64,000 nucleotides of DNA from the NCBI GenBank assembly GCA_041688155.1, contig JBDNIW010000003.1, positions 95,397 to 159,396 of the forward strand, read 5' to 3'. The notes beneath the pieces were generated by a model that ran no database searches, was not told the origin of the DNA, and saw only the letters and a list, made by a program, of their open reading frames with translations. Shown in pieces: positions 9,996-55,604 of this stretch. Position numbers and translations under genes: made by a program. The DNA comes from Minisyncoccota bacterium (GTDB lineage: Bacteria; Patescibacteriota; Minisyncoccia; Phycocordibacterales; UBA918). The first letter of the stretch is position 1. Each line of letters begins with the position of its first letter.

Positions 9996-9998
9996 CAT

Positions 9999-13570: not shown

Positions 13571-13578
13571 TACATTTT

Positions 13579-15552: not shown

Positions 15553-15578
15553 AGGTTTGAATAATTAATAAACAATAA

Positions 15579-16070
<492 letters not shown>

Positions 16071-16078
16071 GTATCAGT

Positions 16079-16642: not shown

Positions 16643-16644
16643 CC

Positions 16645-17625: not shown

Positions 17626-17968
17626 CCCTAATCAGTACAAAATAGCTATTGTTGGTCCAACTGATATGGTGTCAGGGTTCCGGGCGTTGGGGGTAGAGGC
17701 GATTGATGCTCAGACCGGCGAAGCCGCGCTTGAAGAATTACGACGCATCAAAAAACTCACCCTGGATCCAGCCAGCGACGTCAAATACGCCGTTGTGTGT
17801 GTGATCGAGGATTTACTCACGAACATCGACCCCGCCGAATACGCTAAGGTAGTCAGTGGCCCCCTCCCGGCCGTCATTGTCTTACCGGGCCCAGAGGGAA
17901 GTAAAGGAGTAGCGATTGCCCGCCTCCGTCGATTAGCCGAACAGGCTGTCGGAAGCGCAATTATTTAA
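17612..17968 (+). CDS. atpF: V/A-type ATPase subunit F
   Basis: ~118 aa, KIAIVGPTDMVSGFRALGVE; start at internal ATG 17612, overlapping atpC by 14 nt. Confidence 0.7.
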   Translation: MSTTNPNQYKIAIVGPTDMVSGFRALGVEAIDAQTGEAALEELRRIKKLTLDPASDVKYAVVCVIEDLLTNIDPAEYAKVVSGPLPAVIVLPGPEGSKGVAIARLRRLAEQAVGSAII

Positions 17969-17994
17969 TCAGTCACAATTTTAATAACAGTACT

Positions 17995-19776: not shown

Positions 19777-19781
19777 TTTGT

Positions 19782-21188
19782 ATGAGTAATAAAGAATACA
19801 CAAACATCGTAGATATCGCCGGACCACTACTCGTCATTGACGGAGTGGAGGGGGCACAATACGAAGAACTCGTCGAAGTAAACGTACCAGGAGAAAAAGC
19901 TCCCCGGTATGGCAAGGTGCTCGATACCAGTAAAGGTACAGCCGTGGTACAGATGTTTGCTTCAACCGCTGGCATGACCGCAGCGGGTACCCGCGCCCGG
20001 TTCAAAGGCGAAACTCTCAAACTCGGTGTCAGTGAAGACATGCTGGGGCGAGTGTTCAACGGCTCAGGTGAGACCATCGACGGTGGTCCAGCCCTCGTGC
20101 CAGAGAAACGACTGCCAATTTCCGGTGACCCAATCAACCCCTACTCACGAGAATTCCCCAATGACTTTATCCAAACGGGTATTGGTTCAATCGACGTGAT
20201 GAACACGTTGGTGCGCGGACAAAAACTCCCGATTTTCTCTGGTGCTGGACTACCGCACGCTCGGCTCGCAGCCCAGATTGCTCGCCAAGCGTCGGTAAAA
20301 GACGGCGGGGAATTCGCCATCGTGTTCGCGACCCTCGGAGTGTCATTCGAGGAAGCAGAATACTTCCGTCGTGAATTTGAAGAAGCGGGAGCGCTCGGCC
20401 GATCAGTCCTATTTATGAACACTGCGGCTGACCCAGTGGTGGAGCGTATCTCTATCCCACGCATGGCGCTGACAACCGCTGAGTACCTGGCGTTTGAAAA
20501 AGGCAAGCACGTGTTAGTGATTATGACCGACCTCACTAACTACTGTGAAGCTTTGCGCGAAGTGTCGGCTGCCCGCAAAGAAGTCCCGGGACGACGCGGC
20601 TACCCAGGGTACCTCTACACCGACCTCTCCACCCTCTACGAGCGAGCGGGAGCCATCAAAGGTAAGAAGGGGACAATCACGCAGATTCCCATCCTTACTA
20701 TGCCAGATGATGACAAGACCCACCCCGTACCTGATCTCACCGGCTACATCACCGAAGGACAGTTTGTGATTTCGCGCGACCTTTCAAACCGGGGCATCTT
20801 TCCGCCGGTAGATGTACAAGGCTCACTTTCACGTCTCTGGTCAGCTGGAGTAGGCGAAGGCAAAACCCGTGGTGACCACAAAAACCTTAAAGACCAACTG
20901 TTTGCGTCGTATGCCACCGGCCGCGAAGTGCGCGACTTGGCAGTTGTGCTCGGTGAAGCCTCACTCGATGACACCGACCGCGCCCACCTACGCTTCGCCG
21001 AAGCGTTTGAAACCAAATTCGTCGGTCAAGGTGAGTACGAAAACCGCTCAGTAGAAGAGTCACTCGATATCGGTTGGGAGTTGCTCCGCCTACTACCACG
21101 AACGTCACTCAAGCGAGTCAAGGCGGCTGAAATCGAGCAGTACCTAGGCGTCGAAAGCAAAGCAGACGATAACAAACCAACAAAGTAA
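19782..21188 (+). CDS. atpB: V/A-type ATPase subunit B
   Basis: 468 aa regulatory B subunit. Confidence 0.9.
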
Positions 21189-21199
21189 AAAACCCCCAC

Positions 21200-21237
21200 C
21201 CACCTAACTTAAGTCATCGATGACTTAAGTTAGGTGG
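21200..21237. repeat. 38-bp perfect palindrome between atpB and atpD
   Basis: ccacctaacttaagtcatc|gatgacttaagttaggtgg, preceded by aaaaaaccccc. Confidence 0.8.
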
Positions 21238-21315
21238 CTCGAGGCAAATTCCTGGAACACCCAAGTCAAACGCTCACCTGTACAATAGAAGTCAACCAGT
21301 TAATTTTATCTACCC

Positions 21316-21951
21316 ATGATTCTAAAAGTAAGCCCCACCCGAGTATCGCTGCTCACGCTCAAAAAAGAGCTGAAACTAGCGCAAAAGGGTCACAAACTAC
21401 TCAAAGACAAGCGAGATGGTCTCGTGAAGAAATTCATGGCGGTTATTTATGAAGCCAAGGCGTTGCGCGAGTCCGTCGAGGTGCGGCTAGGTTCGGCGTT
21501 TGACTCGTACACGCGTGCGAGTGCGATGACTGCGTCCGCGGCGCTGGACACGGCCTTTATGGCCCCTAACGCTAAAATTGACCTAGACGTCAAAATCCAG
21601 AGCGTCATGTCAGTCAAAATCCCCGAATTCACTGTTACCAAAACCGGTTCAGCGTTCTCCTACGGCATGCTCGAAACCACCGGCGACCTCGACAACGCCA
21701 TCGTCAAGTTCGACGAAGTGTTTGTCGACATCCTCCGGTTAGCTGAGCTAGAGAAAACCGCCGAGATGCTGGCTGAAGAAATCGAGAAAACTCGCCGGCG
21801 GGTGTCAGCGCTTGAGAACGTCCGCATCCCCAACCTCCAAGACACGATTAAATTCATCACCATGCAGCTCGATGAGCGCAACCGAGACGCGGTGGTCTCG
21901 ACCATGCGGGTGAAAGCCATGATTCTAGCTAAAGAGGCCGAAACAGCCTAA
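21316..21951 (+). CDS. atpD: V/A-type ATPase subunit D
   Basis: 211 aa coiled-coil central stalk; last gene of the operon. Confidence 0.8.
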   Translation: MILKVSPTRVSLLTLKKELKLAQKGHKLLKDKRDGLVKKFMAVIYEAKALRESVEVRLGSAFDSYTRASAMTASAALDTAFMAPNAKIDLDVKIQSVMSVKIPEFTVTKTGSAFSYGMLETTGDLDNAIVKFDEVFVDILRLAELEKTAEMLAEEIEKTRRRVSALENVRIPNLQDTIKFITMQLDERNRDAVVSTMRVKAMILAKEAETA

Positions 21952-22170: not shown

Positions 22171-22240
22171 GTATATCCTCCTCCAGATAATACAGCAGAG
22201 TAGCTTGCAATATATAGACATTGTAATACAATGTAAGCAT

Positions 22241-22516
22241 ATGAAAACATCCCCGTATACTATTCGCCTAGCTGACGACGTTCGCGCTGCGCTCGAACTT
22301 GAAGCCAAACGTGAGGATCGTTCTGCGGCTCAGTTAGCTACCCAGGCGATTAAAACTATGTTGGCTCAGAAAACTGTGTATCACGCGGCGATTGACACTG
22401 CACTGGAGGAAACTACCAAAGGAAGATTCATCTCTCAGGCAGCCATGCATGAGTGGATCGATAGTTGGGGTGCCGATAGTGAACAAGCAGCACCGACAAT
22501 AGACATCATCCGCTAG
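22241..22516 (+). CDS. type II antitoxin, ParD/RHH (CopG-like)
   Basis: 91 aa from internal ATG; ribbon-helix-helix-like N-terminus (YTIRLADDVRAALE), partner of the downstream ParE-like toxin. Confidence 0.65.
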   Translation: MKTSPYTIRLADDVRAALELEAKREDRSAAQLATQAIKTMLAQKTVYHAAIDTALEETTKGRFISQAAMHEWIDSWGADSEQAAPTIDIIR

Positions 22517-22518
22517 TC

Positions 22519-22800
22519 ATGCAGTTGGTTTATCTACCAAGTACTGAGTCGGACTTACGGTGGTTGCGACAGTACTATGAACAAGTGTTCGTAGCAGGGT
22601 TACAGGCTGCCCGGCAGCATATCTACGCCACCGAGGCGGCGTTACTTGCTAACCCATACTTGGGCCGTCAGGGGAGCGATAACACTAACGTGCGATCGTT
22701 GCCGATCAGTCGGACGCCCTTTGTATTTGTCTACCGAGTAAACAATAATGAAATACAAATTCTGCGCGTCTGGGACACGCGACGTGATAGTGGAGACTGA
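22519..22800 (+). CDS. type II toxin, ParE/RelE family
   Basis: 93 aa; family-like C-terminus FVFVYRVNNNEIQILRVWDTRRD; 2-nt gap from the antitoxin. Confidence 0.7.
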   Translation: MQLVYLPSTESDLRWLRQYYEQVFVAGLQAARQHIYATEAALLANPYLGRQGSDNTNVRSLPISRTPFVFVYRVNNNEIQILRVWDTRRDSGD

Positions 22801-26868: not shown

Positions 26869-27120
26869 ATGAAAACTCTTACTACAACAGTTGCTCGTAA
26901 AAACCTAGCTGAACTGATTGATACTATTAAATCAACCAATGAAATATTTGCTATTGGCAGGCGCAACAAACCCGAGGTGATTGTGATGAAATTTCCTGAA
27001 ACCTATAACCCAGCGTTCGATGAAATAACAAACCTCAATGCCATGTCTGGTAGTTTTGATTTCTTGGCAGACGAGCCTGATTTATATACGCTTGCTGATG
27101 CCAAAGAAGTCTATGTCTAA
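26869..27120 (+). CDS. type II antitoxin, Phd/YefM family
   Basis: 83 aa, MKTLTTTVARKNLAELIDTIKSTNEIFAIGRRNKPEVIVM. Confidence 0.7.
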   Translation: MKTLTTTVARKNLAELIDTIKSTNEIFAIGRRNKPEVIVMKFPETYNPAFDEITNLNAMSGSFDFLADEPDLYTLADAKEVYV

Positions 27121-27430
27121 GCTGTACGACATCATCCTTATACCGTTTCCATTGACTGATCTGGCTAGTCAAAAAATTCGACCTGCTTTACAGTTGTCGA
27201 GTATAACTGACAAAGATGTATTGCTGTGTGCTATTTCAACCAAGACTCACTCCAAGTTTGATATAAAAATTATGCCGACGTCAGAGAACGGTTTGAAGCA
27301 AATATCTTATGTCCGTACCAACAAAGTAGCTACTATAGACAGGAAGCTAGTGCTGGCTAAGTTAGGTGTACTTGAATCTGTTGCAGTAAAAAGTGTTAAA
27401 ACAAAACTGGCAAAGCTATTTGGTTTGTAA
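27113..27430 (+). CDS. type II toxin, MazF/PemK-like
   Basis: 105 aa, MSKLYDIILIPFPLTDLASQKIRPAL..., overlapping ATGTCTAA start/stop with the antitoxin. Confidence 0.6.
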   Translation: MSKLYDIILIPFPLTDLASQKIRPALQLSSITDKDVLLCAISTKTHSKFDIKIMPTSENGLKQISYVRTNKVATIDRKLVLAKLGVLESVAVKSVKTKLAKLFGL

Positions 27431-38570: not shown

Positions 38571-40466
38571 CTATACAATCCGCTCGGGGTTCACTTCGAT
38601 TTTTACGTATGGTGGTAATGTCCGTAGGCGGTCTAGGGTGGTGATGTACGATGGTTTGTCTTCAGGGTTCAGTCTGATCAGGCCGTGGCGCATGACTTTG
38701 GTCCCGTTGGAGTGGGGGTGGTTGTAGCACTGGATTTGCTCTGCGCGCAAGGCGTTAGTGATGAGTTCCTCGGTCGCGTTGCTGGAATGAATCGTGCCGG
38801 CCCAGGTGAGGAGGATAAATGTGCACACAGGTGGGTACTGCACCATCTGGCGCAAGGCAATCTCGTCGTCATAAAACCGCTCAATCGCCCCACGGGTGGC
38901 GTACTGCAGGAGGTTGTCCGTCTCGGTGCGGGTTTGGACCAAGACTTCTTGGCTGCTGTGCTCGCGCAGGGTCAGTAGCAGGCGAAACAGCGACTCGTCG
39001 GCGCGCCACGTCGGGATACTGCGGGCGGCGTCGAGCGACACTACTGCACTGACCGCGAGGCCTTGTTGCAGGTACGGCAGGACGACCTGGGTGCCGATCA
39101 GCACGCCAGATTGTTTCTTAAAAAACTCGTTGGTTAGTTTGTGGACGTCTTTAGCGGTTTTGGCGATGGACTGGTCGATGACGGTGACGTCGCTGTCGGG
39201 GTATTCGGCTTTCCATTCGTCTGCCACCTGCTGGATCCCAATCCCGCGCTCACGCAGGCGCCAGGAGCCACACTTGGGGCAGGTGTCAGCGGCTTTGACT
39301 TTGCGCCCAGAGGTGCCAGACACAAACCAGCGTTGCTCTTGTTGGTTATCGTCATAGGTCCGCAGCAGGGAATACGTCGTGCCAGAGTCCGGGCAGCGGA
39401 AGATGTGACTGCAGTCGATACAGGCGACGCAGGGCGCGAGTCCGCGCCGAGCCGCAAAGAGAAACACCCGCCCACGAGCTTCGAGCGCTCGTTCGACTGA
39501 TCGTTTGAGTTCTTTGGAAAACAGCACAAACGGCACGTCTGGTTTGGCTTTGTCTTGTTGGTAGATAATCGACAACGGCGCTGGGAATGCCATTCGTTTG
39601 GCGGGCTCATCGTAGGTGGTGTAGCTATCTTCACGGCGTTTATACTCGTCTTCGGTTGCTGGGACAGTGTCACCAAGGATTATCTGGCGGCCGCAGGCCT
39701 TCCCGAACGCTTTGAGTGCTTCGCGATGGTCAAGGTACGGTCGGGTGCGGGCCACATAGTGTGCACTGCCAGAGTGTTCAACAATAATTGTACTGCAGTC
39801 GGACCGCTCGATGTAGGCGTAGGCTGGGGTGGTAATGATTAGTATAGCGGTTGAGGTGTCTTCAATCGCAGTGTACGCCTTATCGCGGGCTGACTTGGTC
39901 ATCATGGGTGAGAGGGTGATAACGCGATTTTTGATGCCGTTGGACATGTGTTTGGCGCAGTTAGCGACGTAGGCGGCAGTGGGGACTACCAGTAATACGG
40001 AATGTTTCTTGGCAAACTGGCTGCGCACGAGCGTCTGGTACGTCAGGTGTCGTTCGTCGGTCCTGGCGGTTAGGAGTTGCGGTACAGTGTCCTCGTTCAT
40101 TTCGCTCGCGCCACTGTCCGGGTACGGGCGGTTGCCATTGCGCACATCAGGCGGTAGGAGTTGGTAGATTATTGATCCCGTGGTGGCTGGGTATTGGTGA
40201 GTGAGGGCTTCGGCCGCAGCTCGAAAAGACGCCGGGAGGGCCCGAGCACCTGGTTGCTGGGGGAGTTTACGTAGGGAAAACGTCGCGGCTTTGAGCGCTG
40301 TTTTGCTCGCATGGGCTGGCCGTACCGCTGTTACGATAGCCGATTGCGTCTTGCCTCTGATTGGTACTTGCACAAAACTCCCAATCGGGTACGGCAAACT
40401 CGAGAAATACGACAACGACTCCAGCATAGTCCCGCGGATGAGTGGAGTGACGATAATGACGTGCAT
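38571..40466 (-). CDS. priA: primosomal protein N-prime (replication restart helicase PriA)
   Basis: 631 aa; superfamily-2 helicase motifs and Cys4 zinc fingers (CVACIDCSH...CPKCGS). Confidence 0.8.
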   Translation of the reverse strand: MHVIIVTPLIRGTMLESLSYFSSLPYPIGSFVQVPIRGKTQSAIVTAVRPAHASKTALKAATFSLRKLPQQPGARALPASFRAAAEALTHQYPATTGSIIYQLLPPDVRNGNRPYPDSGASEMNEDTVPQLLTARTDERHLTYQTLVRSQFAKKHSVLLVVPTAAYVANCAKHMSNGIKNRVITLSPMMTKSARDKAYTAIEDTSTAILIITTPAYAYIERSDCSTIIVEHSGSAHYVARTRPYLDHREALKAFGKACGRQIILGDTVPATEDEYKRREDSYTTYDEPAKRMAFPAPLSIIYQQDKAKPDVPFVLFSKELKRSVERALEARGRVFLFAARRGLAPCVACIDCSHIFRCPDSGTTYSLLRTYDDNQQEQRWFVSGTSGRKVKAADTCPKCGSWRLRERGIGIQQVADEWKAEYPDSDVTVIDQSIAKTAKDVHKLTNEFFKKQSGVLIGTQVVLPYLQQGLAVSAVVSLDAARSIPTWRADESLFRLLLTLREHSSQEVLVQTRTETDNLLQYATRGAIERFYDDEIALRQMVQYPPVCTFILLTWAGTIHSSNATEELITNALRAEQIQCYNHPHSNGTKVMRHGLIRLNPEDKPSYITTLDRLRTLPPYVKIEVNPERIV

Positions 40467-41095: not shown

Positions 41096-42604
41096 TTAAA
41101 ACTCCTCCAGATAGTCAACTTTTGCTCCCAGGGTGGTTAGGCGCTCAACCAGCTTTTCGTAGCCGCGGTTGATGCTGTAGATGTTGCGCAGGATTGAGGT
41201 GCCGTTGGCGGCGAGCATCCCAATCAGGAGAATGGTGGCAGGGCGCAGCGCCGGTGGGCAGACCAGCTCGGTGGCGGTGAGTTTGGTTGGGCCGGTGATG
41301 TAGATGCGGTGCGGGTCGGCCAATACCGTTTCGCCACCCAGGCGGTCAAGCTCGGTAAAATAGATGGCGCGTTTCTCGTACATCCAGTCGTGGATGAGGG
41401 TTTGGCCGGCCGCCTGGGTGGCGATGACGGCAAAAAACGGCAGGTTATCGGCGTTGATACCAGGGTAGGGCCGGGAGTGGATTTTCTCTAGTGAGGCGGT
41501 GAGTTTGGACGGCATGATGGTGAGGTCGACTAACTTGGTCCGGCCGTTGTGACTGAGGTAGGGTTTGGTTTGTTTGTACTTGAGCCCCATTTTTTGGAGG
41601 ACCAGTAGCTCTAGTTCGAGGAACTCGATGGGGCAGCGTTCGATGGTGATTTTAGAATGAGTAGTTATCGCCGCTGCGATAAAAAACATACTGTCGGTTG
41701 GGTCTTCTGAGAGGGTGTATTCGATTGGTTGGTTGATTTCCTTGATGCCGTGCACGGTGAGGGTGGTGGTGCCGATACCGTCAATCCGTACACCGACGGC
41801 CTCTAGGAACGTGCATAACTCTTGCACCATGTAGTTGGCGCTGCAGTATTTGATAGTGGTCGCCCCGGGTGAAAGGGCGGCGGCGAGGAGGGCATTCTCG
41901 GTTACCGTGTCGCCAGACTCGTAGAGGATGATTTCGGCTGGTTTGCGCGCGGCGTAGGTGATTTTGTAAGCATCTTGCGTCACGTTGATGTCGACACCAA
42001 AATGCTCAAGCGCGTAAAAATGCGGCCGGACGGTCCGGGAGCCGAGTTTGCAACCACCTGACTGGGGCAAGGCAAATTTGTTGAGGTGGTGGATCAGCGG
42101 GCCGATAAACATCACGATGCTGCGGGTGCGCTTGGCCGCGGTTTCATTGATGGCTTTGAGGTCAAACTTTTTGGGTGGGGTGAGGCTGATGGTGCTGCCA
42201 GTCCACTCGATTTTGACCCCGATACTCTCAAGCACTTCGGTCAGGCGGTAGACTTCCTCGATGCGGGGCATCTTGTGGATGGTAGTTTTACCCTTGTTCA
42301 GGAGCGCTGCGCACAGTAGTCCTACGGCGCCGTTTTTACTGGTGTTGGTGACGACCGTGCCAGATAGCTTGTGGCCGCCCTCAATCTGCAGGTTCATGGT
42401 GCCAGGGGAGAGGGTGACGAGGTTTTTGCCCAGCGCCTTACTAATTCTAGCTAGCATTTCGGCTGAGACATTTTGCCGCCCAGACTCCATCCGCGCGACC
42501 GCGCTTTGTGTGCTTTTAATTTTTCCAGCCAAATCAGACTGGGTCAGGCCGGATGATTCACGCAAGTCAGCAATTCGTCCTCCGATGTTCGTTTCAGATT
42601 TCAT
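41096..42604 (-). CDS. murA: XRE-family HTH domain fused to UDP-N-acetylglucosamine 1-carboxyvinyltransferase (MurA)
   Basis: 502 aa; residues 8-60 are a Cro/C1-type HTH (LTQSDLAGKIKSTQSAVARMESG); from MNLQIEGGHKLSGTV onward a full-length MurA including the active Cys (GGCKLGSRTVRPH). Confidence 0.75.
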   Translation of the reverse strand: MKSETNIGGRIADLRESSGLTQSDLAGKIKSTQSAVARMESGRQNVSAEMLARISKALGKNLVTLSPGTMNLQIEGGHKLSGTVVTNTSKNGAVGLLCAALLNKGKTTIHKMPRIEEVYRLTEVLESIGVKIEWTGSTISLTPPKKFDLKAINETAAKRTRSIVMFIGPLIHHLNKFALPQSGGCKLGSRTVRPHFYALEHFGVDINVTQDAYKITYAARKPAEIILYESGDTVTENALLAAALSPGATTIKYCSANYMVQELCTFLEAVGVRIDGIGTTTLTVHGIKEINQPIEYTLSEDPTDSMFFIAAAITTHSKITIERCPIEFLELELLVLQKMGLKYKQTKPYLSHNGRTKLVDLTIMPSKLTASLEKIHSRPYPGINADNLPFFAVIATQAAGQTLIHDWMYEKRAIYFTELDRLGGETVLADPHRIYITGPTKLTATELVCPPALRPATILLIGMLAANGTSILRNIYSINRGYEKLVERLTTLGAKVDYLEEF

Positions 42605-42770: not shown

Positions 42771-43790
42771 ATGTCTTTTTTCTCTAACCTTACGCCCAAA
42801 ATCGGCATTGATCTGGGTACCACCAACATTCTGGTATTTGTGCCGGGGCAAGGGATTGTGCTCAACGAACCATCGGTGGTGGCGGTATCAGACGATAATC
42901 GGGTGCTGGCGGTGGGGACTGAGGCTAAACTGATGATTGGCCGGACGCCCGAGAGTATCCGGGCGTATCGGCCCATGCGCGACGGCGTGATTGCGGACTA
43001 CCGCGTGACCGAAGCGATGCTGCGGTACTTTTTGCGCAAATCGATGAGTAAATTTAGTCTGTTCCGGCCGGACGTGATGGTGTCAGTACCAGCCGGGGTC
43101 ACCTCAACCGAGCGTCGCGCCGTGGTTGAAGCCACTATGAAAGCCGGAGCCCGTAACGCGTTTGTGGTCAAGGAACCAATTCTGGCCGCAATTGGGGCTG
43201 GTGTGCCGATTTATGAACCGCAGGGACATATGATCATCGATATCGGTGGTGGCACGATTGACTGTGCGGTGATTAGTCTGGGGGGGATTGTGTCATCCAA
43301 CTCAGTCAAGTGCGCTGGGAACAAAATCGACGCGGCGATTATCGACTACGTCAAAAAGTCGCGGAACCTCGCTATCGGTGAGAAAACCGCTGAGGAAATC
43401 AAAATCGGCGTCGGGTCCGCGTTACCGCTTGAGGAGGAATTGTCGATGGAGATCAACGGGCGCGATATGATTAGTGGCTTGCCGCGGAGGGTGACTATTA
43501 CGAGTAACGAGGTGGTCAAAGCCATCAGCAAGGAATTAAAAGAAATGATTGCTGCCATCAAAACCGTGTTTCAAGAAACTCCACCCGAGCTGTCGTCCGA
43601 CATCATCGACGGTGGCATCATCATGACAGGTGGCACCAGCCAGCTGCGTAATTTTCCTGAGTTGATCCGCAGGCGCACCGGGGTAAAAGCCGCCGTGGCC
43701 GACCAAGCGTTGTTCTGCGTCGCCAAGGGCACCGGGATTGCGCTGGAGCACCTGGACGTCTACAAACGAGCGGTGTTGGCCAAGAAGTAG
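42771..43790 (+). CDS. MreB-like actin homolog (paralog 1)
   Basis: IGIDLGTTNILVFVPGQGIVLNEPSVVAV. Confidence 0.8.
   Translation: MSFFSNLTPKIGIDLGTTNILVFVPGQGIVLNEPSVVAVSDDNRVLAVGTEAKLMIGRTPESIRAYRPMRDGVIADYRVTEAMLRYFLRKSMSKFSLFRPDVMVSVPAGVTSTERRAVVEATMKAGARNAFVVKEPILAAIGAGVPIYEPQGHMIIDIGGGTIDCAVISLGGIVSSNSVKCAGNKIDAAIIDYVKKSRNLAIGEKTAEEIKIGVGSALPLEEELSMEINGRDMISGLPRRVTITSNEVVKAISKELKEMIAAIKTVFQETPPELSSDIIDGGIIMTGGTSQLRNFPELIRRRTGVKAAVADQALFCVAKGTGIALEHLDVYKRAVLAKK
43770..43790. repeat. 21-nt direct repeat copy 1 (end of mreB-like gene incl. stop)
   Basis: GCGGTGTTGGCCAAGAAGTAG repeated at 43942-43962, just before a ParE-like TA cassette. Confidence 0.75.
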
Positions 43791-43968: not shown

Positions 43969-44253
43969 TTACACACGCTCTTGCGCTGTATGGTGAATCG
44001 TAATAATTACTACGGTTGGTTGCGGATCGGTGTCATCTACTCGATAGATGATTTGAAATGGACCAATAAAAACTCGCCGATATTGGTCGCGGAATTGCGC
44101 ACCTCGGTTTGGTAGTAGACTCAGAGACTCACACTTGGATTCTATGGCCTCAATCATTTTGACTGCAGCTGTTGGAGAATCTCCAGCGATGTAGTCGCCA
44201 ATCATAGTTAATTGCGATAGAGCGGCGGACGATAGAATTACTCTAGCGCGCAT
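43969..44253 (-). CDS. type II toxin, ParE/RelE family
   Basis: 94 aa; family-like IYRVDDTDPQPTVVIITIHHTAQ. Confidence 0.6.
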   Translation of the reverse strand: MRARVILSSAALSQLTMIGDYIAGDSPTAAVKMIEAIESKCESLSLLPNRGAQFRDQYRRVFIGPFQIIYRVDDTDPQPTVVIITIHHTAQERV

Positions 44254-44443
44254 AGCGCTGTTTCAGGATTGCAAAGGCTTCAGTTGCGTCTATTGCAGAG
44301 TCGTGTAATAGCGACGCTTCACCAGCGGCGATTTTGCGTTCGATAATCATGGCCTCAATCTGAATTGCGAGTTCTTGCTGGTCTGTTTCGGGTAAGTCAG
44401 CAGCGGAGGTGATGATGGCTGTGAGTTGGTGTTTCATGTCCAA
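44243..44443 (-). CDS. antitoxin (addiction-module component, TIGR02574-like)
   Basis: 66 aa, LPETDQQELAIQIEAMIIERK; overlaps the toxin gene by 11 nt. Confidence 0.5.
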   Translation of the reverse strand: MDMKHQLTAIITSAADLPETDQQELAIQIEAMIIERKIAAGEASLLHDSAIDATEAFAILKQRYAR

Positions 44444-44543: not shown

Positions 44544-47288
44544 ATGGAAGGAACACCAAAACAATTTGCCAGTCCCCAAGAAGAGGTGGAGTTTTTGCGG
44601 GCGCAGTTGGCAGCGCGGGAGCGGGTAGTGTTGGCGCGGACGCCAGAGCTCGATCCGGCTGAGCGTGAATCGATGGGTCGACAGGAGCTACAGTCGTACA
44701 CCAGTTTTACCCCCAAACTAATTCTGCATCCTGAATACGAATTATCAGGGCAGGCAATGCATGAAGCCGTGGCGACGGTCGAGACAGCTTCTGACCCAGT
44801 GGAGGAGATTTTGCAGATAGCAAAAGAAAAGGGAATCAAAAACGCCTTATCGGTGCTGGCGAGCACTGCAGATGCTTACACCATTGACGAAGTTCATCGG
44901 CGATTGATTGAGCTGATCACTACCGGCGTCAACATCGCAGATATGAAAGAAGGGGTTCCGCCCTGGCACGTGTTGCACATGACGTTGTTTGAGGTCACGT
45001 TGCCAGCTAGTGCTAGCGATGCGCCGCCAGTCCCGCTAGCGGAGCTGGTCGGCACCATGGAGCAATTGCTCGCTGGGCTGCGGACGATTGGATCGATCAA
45101 AAGTGGTAACCACTTTGTGTTTGAAATTGCAGTCGCAAACAACACCGAAGATATCATTTTTTACGTCGCGGTCCCCAATGAATTCACGTCGTTGTTCGAG
45201 AAGCAAACGTTGTCACTATTCCCGCACGCTGAGTTGACCGTCCAGCCGCAGGACTACAACGTGTACATGGCAGACGGCGTGACCCAAATTGCCGAGCTGT
45301 CACTCAAAAAACACCCCATCTACCCGCTCAAAACCGTCGCTGCGTTTGCGACTGATCCACTTGAAGTCGTTCTCAATGCCTTTTCCAAAATCGGCCGTGC
45401 CGAAGGCGCGGCCGTGCAGTTTGCTATCCGCCACCCTCAGGGCAAGTACCTCAAAACCTACCAAGACATCATCAAGCAAGTAGAAAAAGGTCTCAAACCA
45501 AACGAAGCTATCGCGCGTAGTACCACCGGTGGTGCCATTATGGCGGAGGTTGGTGGACTATTTGCTAGCAAAAAATCAGCCGAGGCGCTCGCCAAACCGC
45601 TTGAGGTCGACACGGTCGCCATCGAACTGTTCCGCCAGAAAACCGCCCGCGAGATTGTTGAAGTGACCATCAGAATTGTGGTGTCAGCGGCGGATGCTGC
45701 CCGCGTGCAGCAAGTTTTGTCCGAGCTGGAGTCGGCCTGGCACCAGTTTGATACGGTTGAAGCCAACCAGTTTGTGTTTACCCGCCTCAAGGGCAACAAC
45801 CTCAAGTTGGCTGAGAAAGCGTTCTCTTTTCGTCAGTTTGACCAGCGGAACATCATACCGCTGGCGCTGGACGAACTCGCCACACTGGCTCATTTCCCAG
45901 CTAGTGGCGTGCAGTCAGCCCATCAGTTCAAGCAGTCATACTCACAGACTGTGCCAGCGCCATCAAACATGCCAGACAGTGGGACGCTATTGGGGATCAA
46001 TCGTCACCGCAACGTTGAGAAAGACGTATTCATCAGCGCTGAAGACCGACTGCGGCATTTCTACATCATCGGGCAAACCGGAACCGGTAAGACGACCCTG
46101 ATGAAAAACATGATTGTGCAAGACATCCAGCGTGGGGACGGGGTATGTATGATTGACCCGCACGGGACGGACATCGAGGATGTACTCGGGGCTGTTCCAC
46201 CCGAGCGAGCAGATGATGTGATTTATTTTGATCCGTCGAACCTTGACCACGTGGTGGGGCTCAATATGCTCGAGTATGACTACAGCAAACCCGAGCAAAA
46301 AACCTTTGTCGTCAACGAGTTGTTTTCCATCTTCCAAAAGCTATACGGAGCTAACCCAGAATCCATGGGGCCGATGTTTGAGCAGTATTTCCGCAACGCC
46401 ACCATGCTGGTGATGGAAGACCCAGACAGTGGTAACACCCTGATGGACATAGGTCGGGTACTGTCCGATGCTGCCTACCGCCGGCAGAAACTAGCCAAAG
46501 CGACCAATCCTGTCGTCATTCAGTTTTGGAAAGAGATCGCGGGCAAAGCCGGTGGGGACGCTGCGCTTGAAAACATTGTGCCGTACATCGTCTCCAAATT
46601 CGACGTGTTCACCGCCAACGACTACATGCGACCAATTATCGGCCAGCAGCACAGCGCGTTTGATTTCAGGCAAGTCATGGATCAGAAAAAAATCCTCCTG
46701 GTGAACCTGTCCAAGGGTCGCCTGGGGGAGATTAATGCCAACCTGATTGGGATGATTATCGTGGGCAAACTCCTGATGGCGGCGCTGTCACGGGTTGATG
46801 ATCCTACCAAATCATTCCCACCGTTCTACCTGCACATGGATGAGTTCCAGAACATCTCCACCAACTCTATCTCGGCGATACTGTCCGAGGCGCGCAAGTA
46901 CAAACTCGGTCTGACGATGGCGCACCAGTTCATCGCGCAGCTGCAGCCTGATATCAAAGATGCAGTGTTTGGCAACGTTGGGTCGATGGCGGCGTTCCGG
47001 GTCGGTCCGGAAGACGCGCAGTACCTGGAGCAGCAATACGCGCCGACCATCACCGCAACTGATCTGATGAACGTCCCTAACCGTAACGCATTTCTGCGCG
47101 TGCTCGCCAACGGTACCCCGACGCCACCGTTTAGTATCGGCACACTGGCACCGGCTGAGCCCGATCTGGCCCGAGTCCAGCACATGATCGCCATGAGTGC
47201 GCAAAGATACGGTACACCCCGAGCGCAAATCGAAGCGGACATCGCCGCTCGTTATCATAAACCACCCCGACCAACCATCACGTTATAG
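44544..47288 (+). CDS. VirD4/TraD/TraG-like coupling-protein P-loop ATPase with ~430-aa N-terminal domain of unknown function and no TM anchor
   Basis: 914 aa; Walker A GQTGTGKTT, CMIDPHGTD, Walker B/DEF region FYLHMDEFQN, and RKYKLGLTMAHQFIAQL typical of T4CP/FtsK-like ATPases; the N-terminus is hydrophilic. Confidence 0.65.
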   Translation: MEGTPKQFASPQEEVEFLRAQLAARERVVLARTPELDPAERESMGRQELQSYTSFTPKLILHPEYELSGQAMHEAVATVETASDPVEEILQIAKEKGIKNALSVLASTADAYTIDEVHRRLIELITTGVNIADMKEGVPPWHVLHMTLFEVTLPASASDAPPVPLAELVGTMEQLLAGLRTIGSIKSGNHFVFEIAVANNTEDIIFYVAVPNEFTSLFEKQTLSLFPHAELTVQPQDYNVYMADGVTQIAELSLKKHPIYPLKTVAAFATDPLEVVLNAFSKIGRAEGAAVQFAIRHPQGKYLKTYQDIIKQVEKGLKPNEAIARSTTGGAIMAEVGGLFASKKSAEALAKPLEVDTVAIELFRQKTAREIVEVTIRIVVSAADAARVQQVLSELESAWHQFDTVEANQFVFTRLKGNNLKLAEKAFSFRQFDQRNIIPLALDELATLAHFPASGVQSAHQFKQSYSQTVPAPSNMPDSGTLLGINRHRNVEKDVFISAEDRLRHFYIIGQTGTGKTTLMKNMIVQDIQRGDGVCMIDPHGTDIEDVLGAVPPERADDVIYFDPSNLDHVVGLNMLEYDYSKPEQKTFVVNELFSIFQKLYGANPESMGPMFEQYFRNATMLVMEDPDSGNTLMDIGRVLSDAAYRRQKLAKATNPVVIQFWKEIAGKAGGDAALENIVPYIVSKFDVFTANDYMRPIIGQQHSAFDFRQVMDQKKILLVNLSKGRLGEINANLIGMIIVGKLLMAALSRVDDPTKSFPPFYLHMDEFQNISTNSISAILSEARKYKLGLTMAHQFIAQLQPDIKDAVFGNVGSMAAFRVGPEDAQYLEQQYAPTITATDLMNVPNRNAFLRVLANGTPTPPFSIGTLAPAEPDLARVQHMIAMSAQRYGTPRAQIEADIAARYHKPPRPTITL

Positions 47289-47306
47289 TGGTATACTTTT
47301 TGCAAT

Positions 47307-48911
47307 ATGTCTTTTGAAGGGAATCATGGCAAGTATAAATATCAAACCGAGGTTTCTGTTGCCCAGCCAGAATCCGACCAGACACGCGTCGAAAACCCTG
47401 AGCTAGACGAAAACCAGGACGATGTGGCACTCGATTCAATCGAGGCGGTCGATGCATTCCACGCTGAGGTAGAAACGTCTGTTACTGAGCGGCTGCAGGC
47501 CGCTGACACGGCTATCGCCGAGCACTCAGTCCTGTCGGGTCAGCTGCAAGAATTTACCGAGTATCTCGAGAGTGTCAGGGTAAAGCTACGGGGCGGGTTT
47601 GCCTTGTCGGAATTGGATCAGGCCCACGTTCAAGAGATATACGAACGACTCATGGACGAGGTAGACGGTTTGACCGAGACAATTGAGGAACCACCGTTTG
47701 ACCCGGAATCGTACATCCACGAGCAGTTTGCTGAGCACCCTTACTTGACAGCTAGCAAACGTCAAAGTGCGTACTCTTTACTACGCGAGTACAAACGAGC
47801 TTTGAAAGAAACCGGTGACCAGGAGGCGCAAGAGTTGGCTGCACAACTAGCGCTTGAAATACAAGAGTTGGTCGACGAATTAGTCGGCAATGATTTGCTG
47901 CCAGAAGAAGGGCAGGGGTCAGATTTAACTAAAAGAAAGGTGGGAACTAAGTTAACCCTAACATCATTAGATGAGGAGCTGCCAACTGTGGCAAAGGAAC
48001 ATACATCTGAGACGACTAATGATCAAGACTCACAATCTATAGCTGGGCACGACTACGTTGACCTGCCGCAGGCTCAAGCAGAATCAGTGCAGCCAGCTTT
48101 AGAACCAGAACCTATAGCTGAAGTAGTTGCTATGCAACCAGCAAAGCAAGCTGAGGTAACACCTAAAAAACTTGGTTTCTTTAAAAAACTAACCAGCCGG
48201 TTTACCCGTAACCGAGAAGCTGACAATCCAAATTATAAACGTCATCTGGCCGAAGTCGCCCACGCTGCCGAGGTCGCGCAAGACGTCGCCGACCTGCGAG
48301 CCATGGCTGCCAGACGGGCAGAGGCGCAGCGACCGTCCCCGCTTATGTTGACGCAAGACATGAGACTACCAAATGAATTATCGCCAGAAGAGCAGCTGCA
48401 GCAAGTAATGGCAGAAAATGGTCAAGACTCGGTAGAATGGGTTGCTAACAAAGAAAATTTCGCACCATTTGAGCCACACAAAACTGAAACTACACCCCAA
48501 TTTACTCCAGCTTCAGTGCAAGAAAAATCCTGGTTGTCTCGAGCTGAACAAATCGATTCCCGACAAGCGCAGCTACAGCTGCTCCGGGCTGTTGGGAATG
48601 TTGAGGCTATCCCTACCGGGTGGTTTGCTTCCAACCTGGACGCTGGCCAAAGTCCATACCAAGTGTTGGGTAATGACAGTTTTGAAGATTTAGCAACCTA
48701 CGCTCAGTCAAATGAAACCCGCACGGAGTGTCGCGCTTGGCTCAAAAGTAATGGTATCGACGAACACGCTTTTTTCAATTGGATGGATCTGTTGCCTGAG
48801 ATGCAAGCCCGTGGAGTGCAAACAGATGGTCAGTCGTTTAAGCAAGTGATTGATACTTTGCTAGAGTTGCGGGCAGCTGAGCAACGTAATACACAGCCAA
48901 CCGCAGAGTAG
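47307..48911 (+). CDS. acidic coiled-coil protein, hypothetical
   Basis: 534 aa, D/E-rich, no recognised domain; 18-nt gap from the ATPase gene. Confidence 0.5.
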   Translation: MSFEGNHGKYKYQTEVSVAQPESDQTRVENPELDENQDDVALDSIEAVDAFHAEVETSVTERLQAADTAIAEHSVLSGQLQEFTEYLESVRVKLRGGFALSELDQAHVQEIYERLMDEVDGLTETIEEPPFDPESYIHEQFAEHPYLTASKRQSAYSLLREYKRALKETGDQEAQELAAQLALEIQELVDELVGNDLLPEEGQGSDLTKRKVGTKLTLTSLDEELPTVAKEHTSETTNDQDSQSIAGHDYVDLPQAQAESVQPALEPEPIAEVVAMQPAKQAEVTPKKLGFFKKLTSRFTRNREADNPNYKRHLAEVAHAAEVAQDVADLRAMAARRAEAQRPSPLMLTQDMRLPNELSPEEQLQQVMAENGQDSVEWVANKENFAPFEPHKTETTPQFTPASVQEKSWLSRAEQIDSRQAQLQLLRAVGNVEAIPTGWFASNLDAGQSPYQVLGNDSFEDLATYAQSNETRTECRAWLKSNGIDEHAFFNWMDLLPEMQARGVQTDGQSFKQVIDTLLELRAAEQRNTQPTAE

Positions 48912-48940
48912 TCAGCGATAAAGGTGGTAGTATAATACAC

Positions 48941-50380
48941 ATGTCTAGTTCTTTGGGTAGGGCGTTCTCATTTGATACACCGCAAGCGGTGATGCATGTT
49001 TTGGCGTCAGTGCGCCACAGCGACGTGTCAGCGCATGATAAAAACAATCTGCGAGATTTGATTTTGTCGTACACTAACGCGGGTAAGGATCCGTCACTCA
49101 AAATCCAGATCGAGCAGCAGCTAGCGCGCCTGGCTATCCAGCCAGCTCCAGTGGCTGCCCCAGTAGACCCAGCCGTACCATTGGAGTTTGGGTCGTATCG
49201 CAGTGCGCCGATTTTTGTCGCGCCGGCCGCCACCCCAGTAATAGCAAAACCAGCAGCTGCTCAGCCGATGGTACCCTCAGCGTATGCTACCCCGGTGGTA
49301 GTGGAAACTCCCCCAACCCCAACCCCAACCTCTGTGCCGGTAGCGGAACTAGTCTTGGCAGCAGAAGCGGTCCAACCAGAGCCCGCATCAATACCAAAAA
49401 CACTTCCAGTAGTAGAGCAAATCCCGATGCCGGTAGTAGACGCAACTGATAGTGTTGCTGCATTAGCTCGGGTCAGAGAAATTAAAGCCCTCGTCAACGA
49501 GAAAATCGGTAACCCAGTGAATCTGGTAGACATCGACAACCAAGTTGGTCGCGAGTACATGTCAGCGCTTTTAGATGCAATGAAAAAACTGAGTTCTGGA
49601 GGCAGCGACGCCGCTACGATTGAACGACTCGAGTTAGCCTACGCTGCCGTTGAGCGCGTATTGGTCAATACTCCAAATAAAGAGGTTGTGCCTCCAACAC
49701 CAACACCAACACCAACTCCAACTCCAACACCAACACCAACACCAACACCAACTTCTCCAGAGGTTAAGCTAGTGGTCCCTGTACCGCCAATGCCGGTCGC
49801 TCCAACACCTCCGCCTCGAGTAGAACCAGAGCCAGTTGTGGCTCCTGCAATTCCAACTAATAAAGTACCTGAACAACCACAAACAGTCCCACCTCAACCA
49901 GCAGTATCAACTCGTACAGCAGCGATACCGATGAAAGATGATCGTTGGCAAGCTGCTTCAGCAGCAATCAAACCAGCTCCAATTCGACCACTGTCAGAAT
50001 CAGTGCCACCACTCAAATCCATTAACGACGTCCCGACCCAGGATTCTTTGACCAACAAAACCGCTGATCCACTTATGGCAGCTGAAGTGACTGACGGTCT
50101 CAACCAACTCCTTACTGACTGGGTTCTATTCAAAAAAAGTGGACTGTTCGGCACCGGTCCCAAAGGCATTGAGCACGCACTTTATAAAAACATTAAAGAC
50201 CTACAGATTCCACTGCTACTGGCTGGTCGATTTGAAGGTGCTACCCAAGAAATCAAACAAAGCATCACTGACTACATGAATGGTTGGCGTTACGAACAAG
50301 GCATCATTTACGAACAAGGTGAGATATTTGATCATTACTTACGACGGGTGATTCGGCACATCCTTGATTTGCAAAAATAA
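48941..50380 (+). CDS. Pro/Thr-rich protein with (PT)9 hexanucleotide repeat linker, hypothetical
   Basis: 479 aa; CCAACA tandem repeats at ~49693-49752 encode PTPTPTPTPTPTPTPTPT. Confidence 0.5.
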   Translation: MSSSLGRAFSFDTPQAVMHVLASVRHSDVSAHDKNNLRDLILSYTNAGKDPSLKIQIEQQLARLAIQPAPVAAPVDPAVPLEFGSYRSAPIFVAPAATPVIAKPAAAQPMVPSAYATPVVVETPPTPTPTSVPVAELVLAAEAVQPEPASIPKTLPVVEQIPMPVVDATDSVAALARVREIKALVNEKIGNPVNLVDIDNQVGREYMSALLDAMKKLSSGGSDAATIERLELAYAAVERVLVNTPNKEVVPPTPTPTPTPTPTPTPTPTPTSPEVKLVVPVPPMPVAPTPPPRVEPEPVVAPAIPTNKVPEQPQTVPPQPAVSTRTAAIPMKDDRWQAASAAIKPAPIRPLSESVPPLKSINDVPTQDSLTNKTADPLMAAEVTDGLNQLLTDWVLFKKSGLFGTGPKGIEHALYKNIKDLQIPLLLAGRFEGATQEIKQSITDYMNGWRYEQGIIYEQGEIFDHYLRRVIRHILDLQK

Positions 50381-50403: not shown

Positions 50404-50997
50404 ATGAATCACCACGCCACGCTGTTTCGCAGTTCTCGTCCCCTTGATTTTGGTTATGAGACTAACAGCTCAGTCAGCTTGTTTTCGTTTGAACGACTGG
50501 GTATTGATAATGCGCGGCAGATAGCCGCTGATGCGCAACTCAGGCCAGCGTCAGGCGTGGAGCAGGTGTTTGTGCTGCGAACCTTGTTTGTCACGCACGA
50601 AGCGCAAAACGCACTCCTCAAATTGTTTGAAGAGCCGCCAGCTGGGTTGTCTTTTGTCTTAGTGCTACCCCCAGCTGTACGATTGCTTCCAACATTATTG
50701 TCGCGCATTGGGCTAGAGGTGGTCGAACAACCTGATGTGGTTATTAACCAACCGTGGGTAGACTTTCTCGCCGCCGCTCCAGCTGATCGACTCACTCAGA
50801 TTGATCTCTGGCAAAAAACCAAGGAATCAAACTGGTTGCAAGCAATCACCGCTGGTGTGCATACCATTAGCTATGCCGAGGTGCCTGTAGGGGCTCTACC
50901 GGCGATACAGTTGGTCGGTGAACAACTGGCTACCAGAGGCGCCAGCAATAAAATGCTCCTGGAACATCTGGCGTTGATACTGCCCCTACGAAACTAG
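50404..50997 (+). CDS. holB: DNA polymerase III delta-prime subunit, short form
   Basis: EAQNALLKLFEEPP and LLPTLLSR clamp-loader motifs; only 197 aa. Confidence 0.6.
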   Translation: MNHHATLFRSSRPLDFGYETNSSVSLFSFERLGIDNARQIAADAQLRPASGVEQVFVLRTLFVTHEAQNALLKLFEEPPAGLSFVLVLPPAVRLLPTLLSRIGLEVVEQPDVVINQPWVDFLAAAPADRLTQIDLWQKTKESNWLQAITAGVHTISYAEVPVGALPAIQLVGEQLATRGASNKMLLEHLALILPLRN

Positions 50998-54530: not shown

Positions 54531-55604
54531 ATGAAAAAAATGTCGCACTATATCAATCGTCTGCTTGCTACTGTGTCTACTGATGTGGCGATTGATCTAG
54601 GGACGGCTAACACGTTGGTGTACGTCAAAGGGAAGGGGATAGTGCTCAACGAACCAACTATTGTAGCCATCAACAAGAAAACTGGGCAGCTCGTGGCGGT
54701 TGGTAATGAGGCCAAAATGATGCAGGGCCGCACGCCACAACACATCGAGGTGATCAGGCCGCTTGTTGATGGAGTAATTTCTGACTTTGAAGTGGCCGAA
54801 GAGATGTTGTCGTACCTCATAAACAAAATCCGCAGCGACATGCGGTCGTTGATTGCACCGCGGATGCTGATTGGGGTGCCGTCTGGAATCACCAACGTAG
54901 AAATGCGGGCTGCCCAAGACGCCGCCAAAAATGCTGGAGCCAGAGAAGTGTTTCTGATTGAAGAGCCAGTTGCAGCCGCCATTGGCGCTAAACTGCCCAT
55001 CCATAAAGCCATCGGCAGCATGATTATTGACATTGGCGGCGGTACCACTGACATCGCGGTGTTGTCACTCAATGGCCTAGTGGTGTCACGGAACCTGCGT
55101 GTGGCGGGTGACCACCTCAACACTGCGATTATGGTATATATGAGGGACCAGTTCAAAATTCAAGTGGGGGAGAAAACTGCTGAGGATGCCAAAGTTGCTC
55201 TGGCGTCAATTGCGCACTCAGACGGTGGTAAAGAAATGGTAGCTCGCGGACGAGATGTGGTGACGGGATTGCCGCGCGAGGTGGTCATTACTGACGCTGA
55301 CGTGCGTGACGCGGTGGCGTCCAAACTAGAAACTATCGTTGACGCCGTGCGCGGTGTGCTCGAAGAAACGCCACCGGAAGTGATGGCTGATATCATGCAG
55401 CGAGGTATCCACTTGGCCGGTGGTGGAGCCTTGATACCAGGGCTTGCGTCATTGCTTGAGCACGCACTCGAGGTACCAGTTATTGTCGTGCCAGACCCTC
55501 TGCGCGCCGTAATTCGCGGGGCTGGGATAGTGGTTGAGGATCTGGAGTTATATAAAGATTTGTTAATTGATCATGCTGATACGTTCGCGCCGCATCTCGG
55601 ATAA
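54531..55604 (+). CDS. mreB: rod shape-determining protein MreB
   Basis: VAIDLGTANTLVYVKGKGIVLNEPTIVAI; followed by mreC, mreD, mrdA. Confidence 0.9.
   Translation: MKKMSHYINRLLATVSTDVAIDLGTANTLVYVKGKGIVLNEPTIVAINKKTGQLVAVGNEAKMMQGRTPQHIEVIRPLVDGVISDFEVAEEMLSYLINKIRSDMRSLIAPRMLIGVPSGITNVEMRAAQDAAKNAGAREVFLIEEPVAAAIGAKLPIHKAIGSMIIDIGGGTTDIAVLSLNGLVVSRNLRVAGDHLNTAIMVYMRDQFKIQVGEKTAEDAKVALASIAHSDGGKEMVARGRDVVTGLPREVVITDADVRDAVASKLETIVDAVRGVLEETPPEVMADIMQRGIHLAGGGALIPGLASLLEHALEVPVIVVPDPLRAVIRGAGIVVEDLELYKDLLIDHADTFAPHLG

Follow-up and report, generated by a model that had tools for sequence, protein, structure and literature searches.

Three co-directional open reading frames (ORFs) on the + strand span positions 44544-50380 of a 64,000-nucleotide stretch of a Minisyncoccota bacterium (the window; assembly GCA_041688155.1, contig JBDNIW010000003.1, positions 95,397 to 159,396 of the forward strand). 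The first (44544-47288) encodes a soluble ATPase of 914 aa, in which a DUF8128 N-domain predicted to adopt the fold of the VirB4 N-terminal domain precedes a P-loop C-domain that resembles type IV coupling proteins (T4CPs). It is followed by genes for an acidic protein of 534 aa (47307-48911) and for a 479-aa protein with Pro-Thr repeats, the PT protein (48941-50380). We consider it probable that the ATPase is a domesticated, soluble member of the VirB4/VirD4 branch, catalytically intact as judged by its motifs, which acts as a translocase docked by partner proteins; its likeliest role would be that of the coupling-type ATPase of a relaxase-less chromosomal type IV secretion system (T4SS). The system does not represent a new class, and we infer its function.

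The description of the ATPase draws on the ORF itself, Pfam and NCBIfam matches, a precomputed PF26449 match, AlphaFold2 (AF2) models searched with Foldseek, and hydropathy. An earlier examination of the same DNA, made from the letters and a list of translated ORFs (hereafter the sequence-only reading), had described an anchorless coupling ATPase with a novel N-domain in a cluster perhaps peculiar to its lineage. Much of that description was confirmed, and two of its elements, the novelty of the N-domain and the restriction to one lineage, were overturned.

A coupling-type motor

The P-loop ATPase domain, placed by motif positions and by Pfam and NCBIfam matches, covers aa 481-905 (45984-47258, + strand), with the Walker A motif at 46071-46094, the Walker B motif (DEFQ) at 46833-46853, and an RK...HQ motif at 46893-46931. 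The four motifs of T4CP/FtsK type that had been named from the sequence are all present: GQTGTGKT at aa 510-517, MIDPHGTD at 536-543, HMDEFQN at 764-770, and RKYKLGLTMAHQF at 784-796. Across all 51 homologues compared, the key residues of these motifs do not vary. Three Pfam families match above their gathering cut-offs (given in brackets): DUF87 with 31.1 bits (23.2), TrwB_AAD_bind with 29.2 bits (20.5) over aa 502-545 only, and T4SS-DNA_transf with 25.2 bits (20.1) over aa 503-801. The NCBIfam models for TraD and for the CD1115 VirD4-like proteins (aa 487-821) also match, far under their equivalog cut-offs. Together with the Foldseek matches described below, these results bear out the assignment to the T4CP/FtsK-HerA type.

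Within this broad class, the C-terminal half is by its sequence closest to the coupling proteins TrwB, TraD and CD1115. A profile of the family, run against the sequences in the PDB, found TrwB and DotL and did not find TrwK, which is a VirB4. The Pfam families CagE_TrbE_VirB and AAA_10 gave no match, and NCBIfam TIGR00929 reached 14.9 bits vs a cut-off of 643. FtsK_SpoIIIE (PF01580) stayed below threshold, at 15.1 vs 24 bits, and matched the Walker A region only. Between the Walker A and Walker B motifs, the AF2 model places a helical insertion (aa 575-705; 46266-46658, + strand) at the position of the T4CP all-alpha domain, a part of the model with low confidence.

A predicted VirB4-like N-domain without a membrane anchor

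The N-terminal part of the ATPase comprises two segments. The first is a helical extension (aa 1-126; 44544-44921, + strand), defined by AF2 secondary structure and conserved columns, which is conserved within the Patescibacteria family. The second is an alpha/beta core (aa 146-448; 44979-45887, + strand). The phage and plasmid relatives that we checked begin to align only near aa 190-200. The sequence-only reading had considered this region unrecognized; a precomputed match instead assigns it to DUF8128 (PF26449), both on this exact protein and on 119 of 120 listed homologues. Literature searches on DUF8128, and on Patescibacteria together with DUF87, returned nothing.

We modeled the fold with AF2 and compared it by Foldseek. 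The full-length model has a predicted local distance difference test score (pLDDT) of 69.6, and its best matches in the PDB are TrwK/VirB4 of R388, aligned over ~900 columns through both halves of the protein. HerA and TrwB come next; HerA structures hold the second rank, no nuclease or Sir2 partner of the kind that might accompany them was found nearby, and TrwB aligned over only ~460 columns. When the N-domain was modeled separately (aa 1-478; pLDDT 75.2, predicted template modeling score 0.72), the only Foldseek matches with E <1e-3 were 14 TrwK chains. DUF8128 is thus predicted to be a VirB4 N-terminal-domain fold, and a VirB4 fold rather than that of HerA. Nor does the N-domain correspond to the all-alpha or transmembrane (TM) region of known T4CPs, which would have refuted the sequence-only reading. 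A weak profile match to TcpC (VirB8-like, 3UB1; E 0.022) found no support in the fold searches and was set aside.

The absence of N-terminal TM helices, already proposed from the sequence, held up in a hydropathy scan. No TM segment was found in aa 1-480, and the highest 19-residue Kyte-Doolittle mean of the protein (1.84, at aa 730) lies within the ATPase fold. As a control, the RseP encoded in this window peaks at 2.73. VirB4 itself has no TM helices and relies on VirB3 for its attachment to the membrane (Quinonero-Coronel et al. 2025, PMC12102498), and for that reason the anchorless state is normal for a VirB4-like architecture. Since the predicted N-domain fold matches VirB4 and the motor sequence matches T4CPs, the architecture would be a VirB4-like N-domain joined to a T4CP-like motor.

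A core chromosomal gene with fixed synteny

In the Paceibacteria, the ATPase gene is a vertically inherited, highly conserved core chromosomal gene, which we read as domesticated; it is near-universal across genomes labeled Parcubacteria or Paceibacteria. Scanning one genome per species located it in at least 589 loci, and the N-domain alone retrieves 799 clusters at 50% identity. The best 120 of 668 significant database matches are 64-83% identical to the window protein, and their sources, where named, are labeled Paceibacteria, Parcubacteria, Kaiserbacteria or Nomurabacteria. Among ten distant members that we looked up, three had named sources, all from the Paceibacterota or the Parcubacteria group. 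One metagenome-assembled genome (MAG), JAYSUD01 (GFS_12610), carries two different ATPase cassettes on two contigs (L029 and L035), whose ATPases are 63% and 61% identical to the window protein, owing either to a genuine duplication or to mixed binning.

We compared gene order in 80 fetched species loci, whose ATPases are 48-82% identical to that of the window. In ~55 of them the gene occupies the same chromosomal position as in the window (context A). On the minus strand lie fmt, def, a gene for a putative PriA-like protein of 631 aa, and murA; the plus strand carries, in order, mreB, the ATPase gene, the acidic-protein gene, a gene for a small acidic protein of ~100 aa where present, the PT gene, holB, frr, rseP, proS, a second mreB, and mreC. 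The mreB gene stands directly upstream of the ATPase gene, in the same direction, in 37 loci. In context B (~10 distant loci, 48-51% identity), the gene follows secY-adk-map and precedes ndk. Context C comprises three loci with the order recJ, ATPase, acidic protein, small acidic protein, RNase H, comEC.

The three ORFs of the window are as tightly spaced as had been noted, with intergenic gaps of 18 nt and 29 nt. The sequence-only reading had further taken them to be a co-transcribed trio. Their tight linkage agrees with this; the linkage is not, however, peculiar to the three genes, as the PT gene stands equally close to holB-frr-rseP (median gap 10 nt across the loci). The median gap after the ATPase gene is 11.5 nt, and that between mreB and the ATPase gene is 88 nt. 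In the window, the end of the third ORF is 23 nt from the start of holB (50404-50997, + strand; DNA polymerase III delta', Pfam DNA_pol3_delta2), the first housekeeping gene of the same continuing gene string. A scan for promoters and terminators gave counts not above those of shuffled sequence.

The suggestion that the cluster lies between housekeeping genes, outside any obvious integrative and conjugative element (ICE), proved sound. No families of VirB4, VirB6 or relaxases were recorded among the checked window genes, that is, all ORFs of at least 200 aa plus the called genes of 7995-29776 and 34544-57288. Using phmmer with Replic_Relax, VirB4 and VirB6 queries (for Replic_Relax, three proteins at E <0.01), we found no relaxase, VirB4 or VirB6 in the window or within 8 kb of the gene in the 80 loci. 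Neither the window nor the loci contain genes for VirB3, VirB6 or VirB2. The cluster is not part of an identifiable conjugative element, and the synteny is fixed among housekeeping genes. The recurrent position between mreB and holB-frr-rseP, together with the absence of a nearby relaxase or T4SS gene, therefore places the gene outside an ICE.

These data also bear on whether the cluster could be a mobile element (a remnant of an ICE or plasmid) or a HerA-type anti-phage defense system. Relatives of the ATPase do occur on plasmids and phages, a PADLOC search matched mad8 of the MADS system (E 2.6e-12) and, more weakly, HerA, and a ParE toxin-antitoxin pair lies directly upstream in the source genome. 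The pair is nevertheless absent from all other loci, and the GC content of the cluster (0.51-0.53) equals that of its flanks and is uniform throughout the region. Neither the window nor the loci hold an integrase, relaxase, nuclease or Sir2 partner, and scanning IMG/VR viral contigs with the family alignment yielded no confirmed relative. The identity among the best 120 database matches, which come from MAGs with varied Parcubacteria-group labels, is typical of core genes and not of defense islands. The shared chromosomal position in ~55 of 80 loci effectively refutes this explanation, which we regard as very improbable.

A hypervariable acidic partner and the PT protein

The second protein of the cluster is indeed highly acidic, as had been noted, with an isoelectric point (pI) of 4.51 and 18.4% Asp plus Glu. 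It gave no match in Pfam, NCBIfam, PADLOC or PHROG, and BLAST found it in only one other locus. A hidden Markov model (HMM) of its last ~125 residues, a conserved C-terminal domain at aa 406-530 (48522-48896, + strand) delimited by alignment and HMM, nonetheless matches, in 31 further loci of contexts A and C, the C-terminal end of an ORF that starts shortly after the ATPase gene and is, with few exceptions, the next one. That a conserved domain follows the ATPase across both contexts is stronger evidence of a functional link than adjacency alone. From its pI, its spacing and the survey of this slot, we regard the window protein as the local, TM-less form of a hypervariable partner encoded directly 3' of the ATPase gene.

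The proteins in the slot after the ATPase are almost all acidic, with confirmed partners as short as 268 aa and as long as 1,489 aa. Partners of at least 600 aa often contain one or two hydrophobic segments rich in Gly and Ala, ~95-100 aa apart when there are two. In the window protein, a pattern scan located the basic amphipathic motif KKLGFFKKL (aa 287-295; 48165-48191, + strand), possibly a peripheral membrane-binding helix. A reading by eye of part of the long slot proteins as LysM domains was dropped when Pfam lent it no support.

In 24 loci (for example, L013 at 14289-14588), the gene for the long acidic partner and the PT gene are separated by one that encodes a small and very acidic protein (92-128 aa, pI 4.1-4.9). 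The family of these small proteins has no match in Pfam or PHROG, and the window lacks the gene. A phmmer comparison of the acidic protein of the window with the ~100-aa acidic proteins of other loci showed no relation.

The third protein contains the expected PT linker, as (PT)10 at aa 252-271, along with (PT)3 at aa 125-130. The longer repeat is encoded by a microsatellite identified by TRF (49694-49752, + strand; CCAACA x 9.8, 96% matches), and the length of the linker may vary between strains by slippage of this hexanucleotide. Conservation among homologues divides the protein into three modules (aa 1-70, 175-240 and 376-479, the last very conserved) joined by variable Pro-rich linkers. 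The family numbers at least 794 proteins, all without annotation, and its HMM matched in 49 of 83 fetched loci, a count that includes three copies of the window contig and comes from a set without the phage and plasmid loci. Library scans found no family in Pfam, NCBIfam, PADLOC or PHROG, with only a sub-threshold match to DAHL, and a profile of the family returned only noise from the PDB sequences. Signal peptides and TM segments are absent from both the PT protein and the acidic protein.

Relatives on phages and plasmids

The sequence-only reading had suggested a system specific to this lineage. In fact, homologues covering both halves of the ATPase occur in Bacillus phages and on plasmids of Firmicutes, Actinobacteria and archaea. 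The family phrog_5156 matches aa 186-901 of the window protein with E 6.9e-77; the alignment with Bacillus phage G gp156 covers aa 193-879, and that with SPO1 gp27.4 spans aa 202-900 (BLASTP E 3e-22). Plasmids contribute 272 matching records, spread over Bacillus, Streptomyces, Clostridium, Staphylococcus and archaea. A DUF87 homologue of 883 aa on a Shouchella clausii plasmid (WP_248290882) matches aa 197-871 with E 1e-38. Its gene lies between a primase gene and, directly downstream, a Replic_Relax gene, and the same plasmid encodes a separate canonical VirB4 (AAA_10, E 1e-115). On this one examined plasmid, the homologue stands where a coupling protein would, beside the relaxase gene. In SPO1, the neighbors of gp27.4 are an actin-like gene, a Replic_Relax gene and the genes of three small hydrophobic proteins; in phage G, gp156 follows VirB6-like and VirB4-like genes.

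A DNA translocation operon with a relaxase, a TM-less VirD4-like coupling ATPase, a VirB6-like protein and an MreB-like protein has been described in phages 0305phi8-36 and SPO1, and ~75% of the related translocases have no TM helices (Pathria et al. 2012, PMC3357382). Judged by sequence similarity, the window ATPase belongs to the same family as these TM-less coupling ATPases, or translocases, of monoderm plasmids and Bacillus phages.

Two further observations concern these relatives. Immediately upstream of SPO1 gp27.4, in the interval that separates it from gp27.9 (L086, 3450-3953), gp27.7, gp27.6 and gp27.5 encode strongly hydrophobic proteins of 48-73 aa, which may be membrane components like VirB2 or VirB3. 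The closest relative of the motor domain outside the candidate phyla radiation (CPR) is a T4CP-like protein of 708 aa on the Bradyrhizobium plasmid p131_1 (L089, 5101-7227; 34% identity over aa 475-870, E 2e-64). Genes for CHAT-domain and TPR proteins, rather than conjugation genes, stand on either side of its own.

Proposed mechanism and alternatives

By analogy with TrwB and VirB4, the ATPase would form hexamers. Having no anchor of its own, it would depend on partner proteins for its recruitment to the membrane or a channel. First among the candidates for docking is the hypervariable acidic protein, acting through its conserved C-terminal domain, with the PT protein and the neighboring MreB paralogue as additional ones. 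ATP would then drive the transport of a macromolecule, nucleic acid being the likeliest substrate, and the most plausible setting for this activity would be the relaxase-less chromosomal T4SS encoded elsewhere in Patescibacteria. Such a system, of the monoderm type, has been described in these bacteria and is essential for epibiotic growth in one tested species (Quinonero-Coronel et al. 2025, PMC12102498).

Several observations weigh against this proposal. No T4SS gene was found within 8 kb of the ATPase gene in any of the 80 loci. A T4CP homologue, which may or may not be the orthologue of the window ATPase, was reported as non-essential in the one Saccharimonadia species tested (PMC12102498). 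The structural models are of moderate confidence only (pLDDT 70 and 75), the fold match rests on a single family of full-length VirB4 structures (TrwK), and the insertion at aa 575-705, helical in the AF2 model, has pLDDT <50 over aa 582-638 and 669-704. As for the partners, the acidic protein of the window has no TM segment and therefore offers no clear sign, in this genome, of acting as a membrane adaptor. In context B, the genes for the acidic and PT proteins are not adjacent to the ATPase gene, and therefore the partnership is not universal. The PT gene, moreover, is joined to holB as tightly as to the cluster, and adjacency is weak evidence in compact CPR genomes.

We also considered a motor that works independently of a T4SS in the uptake or processing of nucleic acids, pulling scavenged DNA or RNA through ComEC or a similar channel, much as the VirB4-type ATPases of H. 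pylori ComB and Sulfolobus Ced drive the import of DNA. In its favor, no T4SS gene stood near the ATPase gene in any locus examined. The three loci of context C (L061 at 6258-15330, L063 and L078), where the string that begins with recJ and the ATPase gene runs through RNase H to comEC, fit this idea, as does the dependence of CPR bacteria, which lack nucleotide synthesis, on imported nucleic acids (bioRxiv 10.64898/2026.06.21.733656). These loci are, however, related to one another and the only three of 80 with such neighbors; the main contexts consist of cell-wall, ribosome-recycling and ribosomal-protein genes. A weak NCBIfam match to CedD, the DNA-translocating ATPase of Ced, also points toward uptake, although it covers the Walker A region only and reaches 22 bits vs a cut-off of 600. 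The ATPase has no sequence similarity to uptake motors of the ComFA type. On balance, we consider an uptake motor unlikely.

The neighborhood of the gene raises another alternative, a motor for segregation, division or nucleoid organization that works with the adjacent MreB paralogue in the manner of FtsK or of plasmid partition. In the 37 loci with mreB directly upstream and co-directional, the paralogue is a canonical one; the wider neighborhood holds murA, mreB, mreC and PBP2; and the high conservation of the ATPase fits a core cellular function. Phage and plasmid relatives are accompanied by actin-like proteins as well (SPO1 gp27.9, which is ALP/Alp7A-like, and the ParM of the Shouchella plasmid). 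On the other hand, the match to FtsK_SpoIIIE is sub-threshold and confined to Walker A, and the protein has neither a TM domain nor a gamma-type domain. The gap between mreB and the ATPase gene is longer than those within the cluster, and in the window it is broken by a toxin-antitoxin pair on the opposite strand, with a terminator-like hairpin 3' of mreB. Contexts B and C lack the mreB linkage altogether. We therefore judge this alternative to be quite unlikely.

A bolder version of the partner-docked translocase can also be drawn. Here, an anchorless translocase derived from conjugation would have become a core machine, with the acidic protein as a hairpin membrane adaptor, the small acidic protein, and the PT protein as a scaffold, perhaps placed on the MreB paralogue, and would carry nucleic acid into or out of the cell without a canonical T4SS. 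The family might then be intermediate between VirB4 and the anchored coupling proteins. We hold this combination to be quite unlikely. A coupling-type ATPase docked by partners to the chromosomal T4SS remains our preferred reading, and if docking by a partner is true, it would show a coupling-type motor working without a membrane anchor of its own.

Neighboring genes in the window

The MreB paralogue upstream of the ATPase gene (42771-43790, + strand; 339 aa) is co-directional with it and is, by adjacency, a candidate partner; it matches MreB in the PDB with E 5e-107. A second paralogue (54531-55604, + strand) heads mreC-PBP2. The two are 42% identical to each other, and both match PDB MreB with E ~1e-100; the first has a pI of 9.0 and a median identity of 81%.

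Between the first mreB and the ATPase gene lie a ParE toxin gene (43969-44253; Pfam ParE_toxin) and, from the gene calls, a small ORF for a putative antitoxin (44243-44437), together occupying 43969-44437 on the - strand. The pair was seen only in the source genome and its near-identical contigs, and the 80 other loci gave no ParE match. Two more toxin-antitoxin pairs lie on the + strand of the window, at 22205-22800 and 26869-27430 (RelB3/ParE and PhdYeFM/PemK).

On the - strand, at 41096-42604, a MurA of 502 aa is fused to an N-terminal helix-turn-helix domain of the XRE type (HTH_3/HTH_31 plus EPSP_synthase). MurA homologues of ~500 aa stand at the same position in ~48 related loci, a statement about length that does not imply the fusion. 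The 631-aa protein of context A is encoded at 38571-40466 (- strand) in the window; 43 loci share it, no Pfam match is on record for it, and its CxxC clusters and genomic location hint at a divergent helicase of the PriA type.

The V/A-type ATPase operon at 13594-21951 on the + strand is complete (subunits I, c, AC39/d, F, A, B and D). Besides this operon and the toxin-antitoxin pairs, the remaining genes of the window have housekeeping functions; they include those for an ABC transporter, an aldolase, glycosyltransferases, GH57, GH15 and TruB, as well as UDG, Fpg, fmt, def, murA, the two mreB genes, mreC, PBP2, a class II aminoacyl-tRNA synthetase and the MraW methylase.

Comparison with known systems

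The ATPase shares features with each of several known families and is set apart from each. VirB4, represented by TrwK of R388 (PDB 7O42, 7O43, 8RTB and 8RTD), likewise combines an N-domain with a P-loop C-domain, has no TM anchor of its own, and is collinear with the window protein over the ~900 columns of the Foldseek alignment. It differs in sequence and setting: the window ATPase has no CagE_TrbE_VirB or AAA_10 match, its family profile did not find TrwK, and it has no VirB3, VirB6 or VirB2 neighbors.

To the coupling proteins TrwB, VirD4, TraD and TraG (PDB 1E9R), the likeness lies in the motor sequence (Pfam TrwB_AAD_bind, T4SS-DNA_transf and TraG-D_C; NCBIfam TraD and CD1115; TrwB and DotL in the PDB) and perhaps in the putative helical insertion, of low pLDDT, at the site of the all-alpha domain. 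Unlike these proteins, the window ATPase has a predicted VirB4-like N-domain in place of the N-terminal TM domain, scores far under the NCBIfam equivalog cut-offs, and has no relaxase partner. FtsK and SpoIIIE are more distant, with a motor-domain match below the cut-off; the window protein has neither a TM domain nor their gamma-type DNA-recognition domain.

The closest counterparts in overall design are the TM-less translocases of phages and plasmids, among which the phage members are 0305phi8-36 orf201, SPO1 gp27.4, phage G gp156 and phrog_5156. They share the two-part architecture and a similar size (825-906 aa vs 914), with similarity over the N-domain core and the motor, no TM helices (PMC3357382), and an actin-fold gene nearby. 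The phage and plasmid versions adjoin a relaxase of the Replic_Relax/MobC type, whereas the Patescibacteria gene has no such neighbor in the window or within 8 kb in the 80 loci; in phage G and on the Shouchella plasmid, VirB6- or VirB4-like genes lie close by as well, again unlike the Patescibacteria version. In turn, the Patescibacteria proteins possess the extra conserved helical N-extension of 126 aa and partners of their own (the acidic protein, the ~100-aa acidic protein and the PT protein), and their genes are themselves part of the chromosomal core.

Within Patescibacteria, it has already been reported that nearly all genomes contain orphan T4CP homologues away from virB4. Quinonero-Coronel et al. 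(2025, PMC12102498) counted 5,713 T4CP homologues in 2,918 of 3,035 genomes, only 148 of them near virB4, and suggested that the orphans may have taken on a role other than conjugation, through exaptation. The true virB4 cluster is commonly near dnaA/dnaN in Paceibacteria and most other classes (PMC12102498). Judging by the names that NCBI gives to its homologues ("type IV secretion system DNA-binding domain-containing" and "TraM recognition domain-containing"), the window protein may belong to this orphan class. The orphans were described there without N-domain, synteny or partners. The predicted VirB4 N-terminal-domain fold of DUF8128, the link between the orphans and the phage and plasmid family, the fixed housekeeping synteny, and the conserved domain of the acidic partner together with the PT family appear to be new. 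What the Patescibacteria T4SS transports and which motor feeds it were left as open questions (PMC12102498), for which the ATPase cluster offers concrete candidates in studies of interaction and localization.

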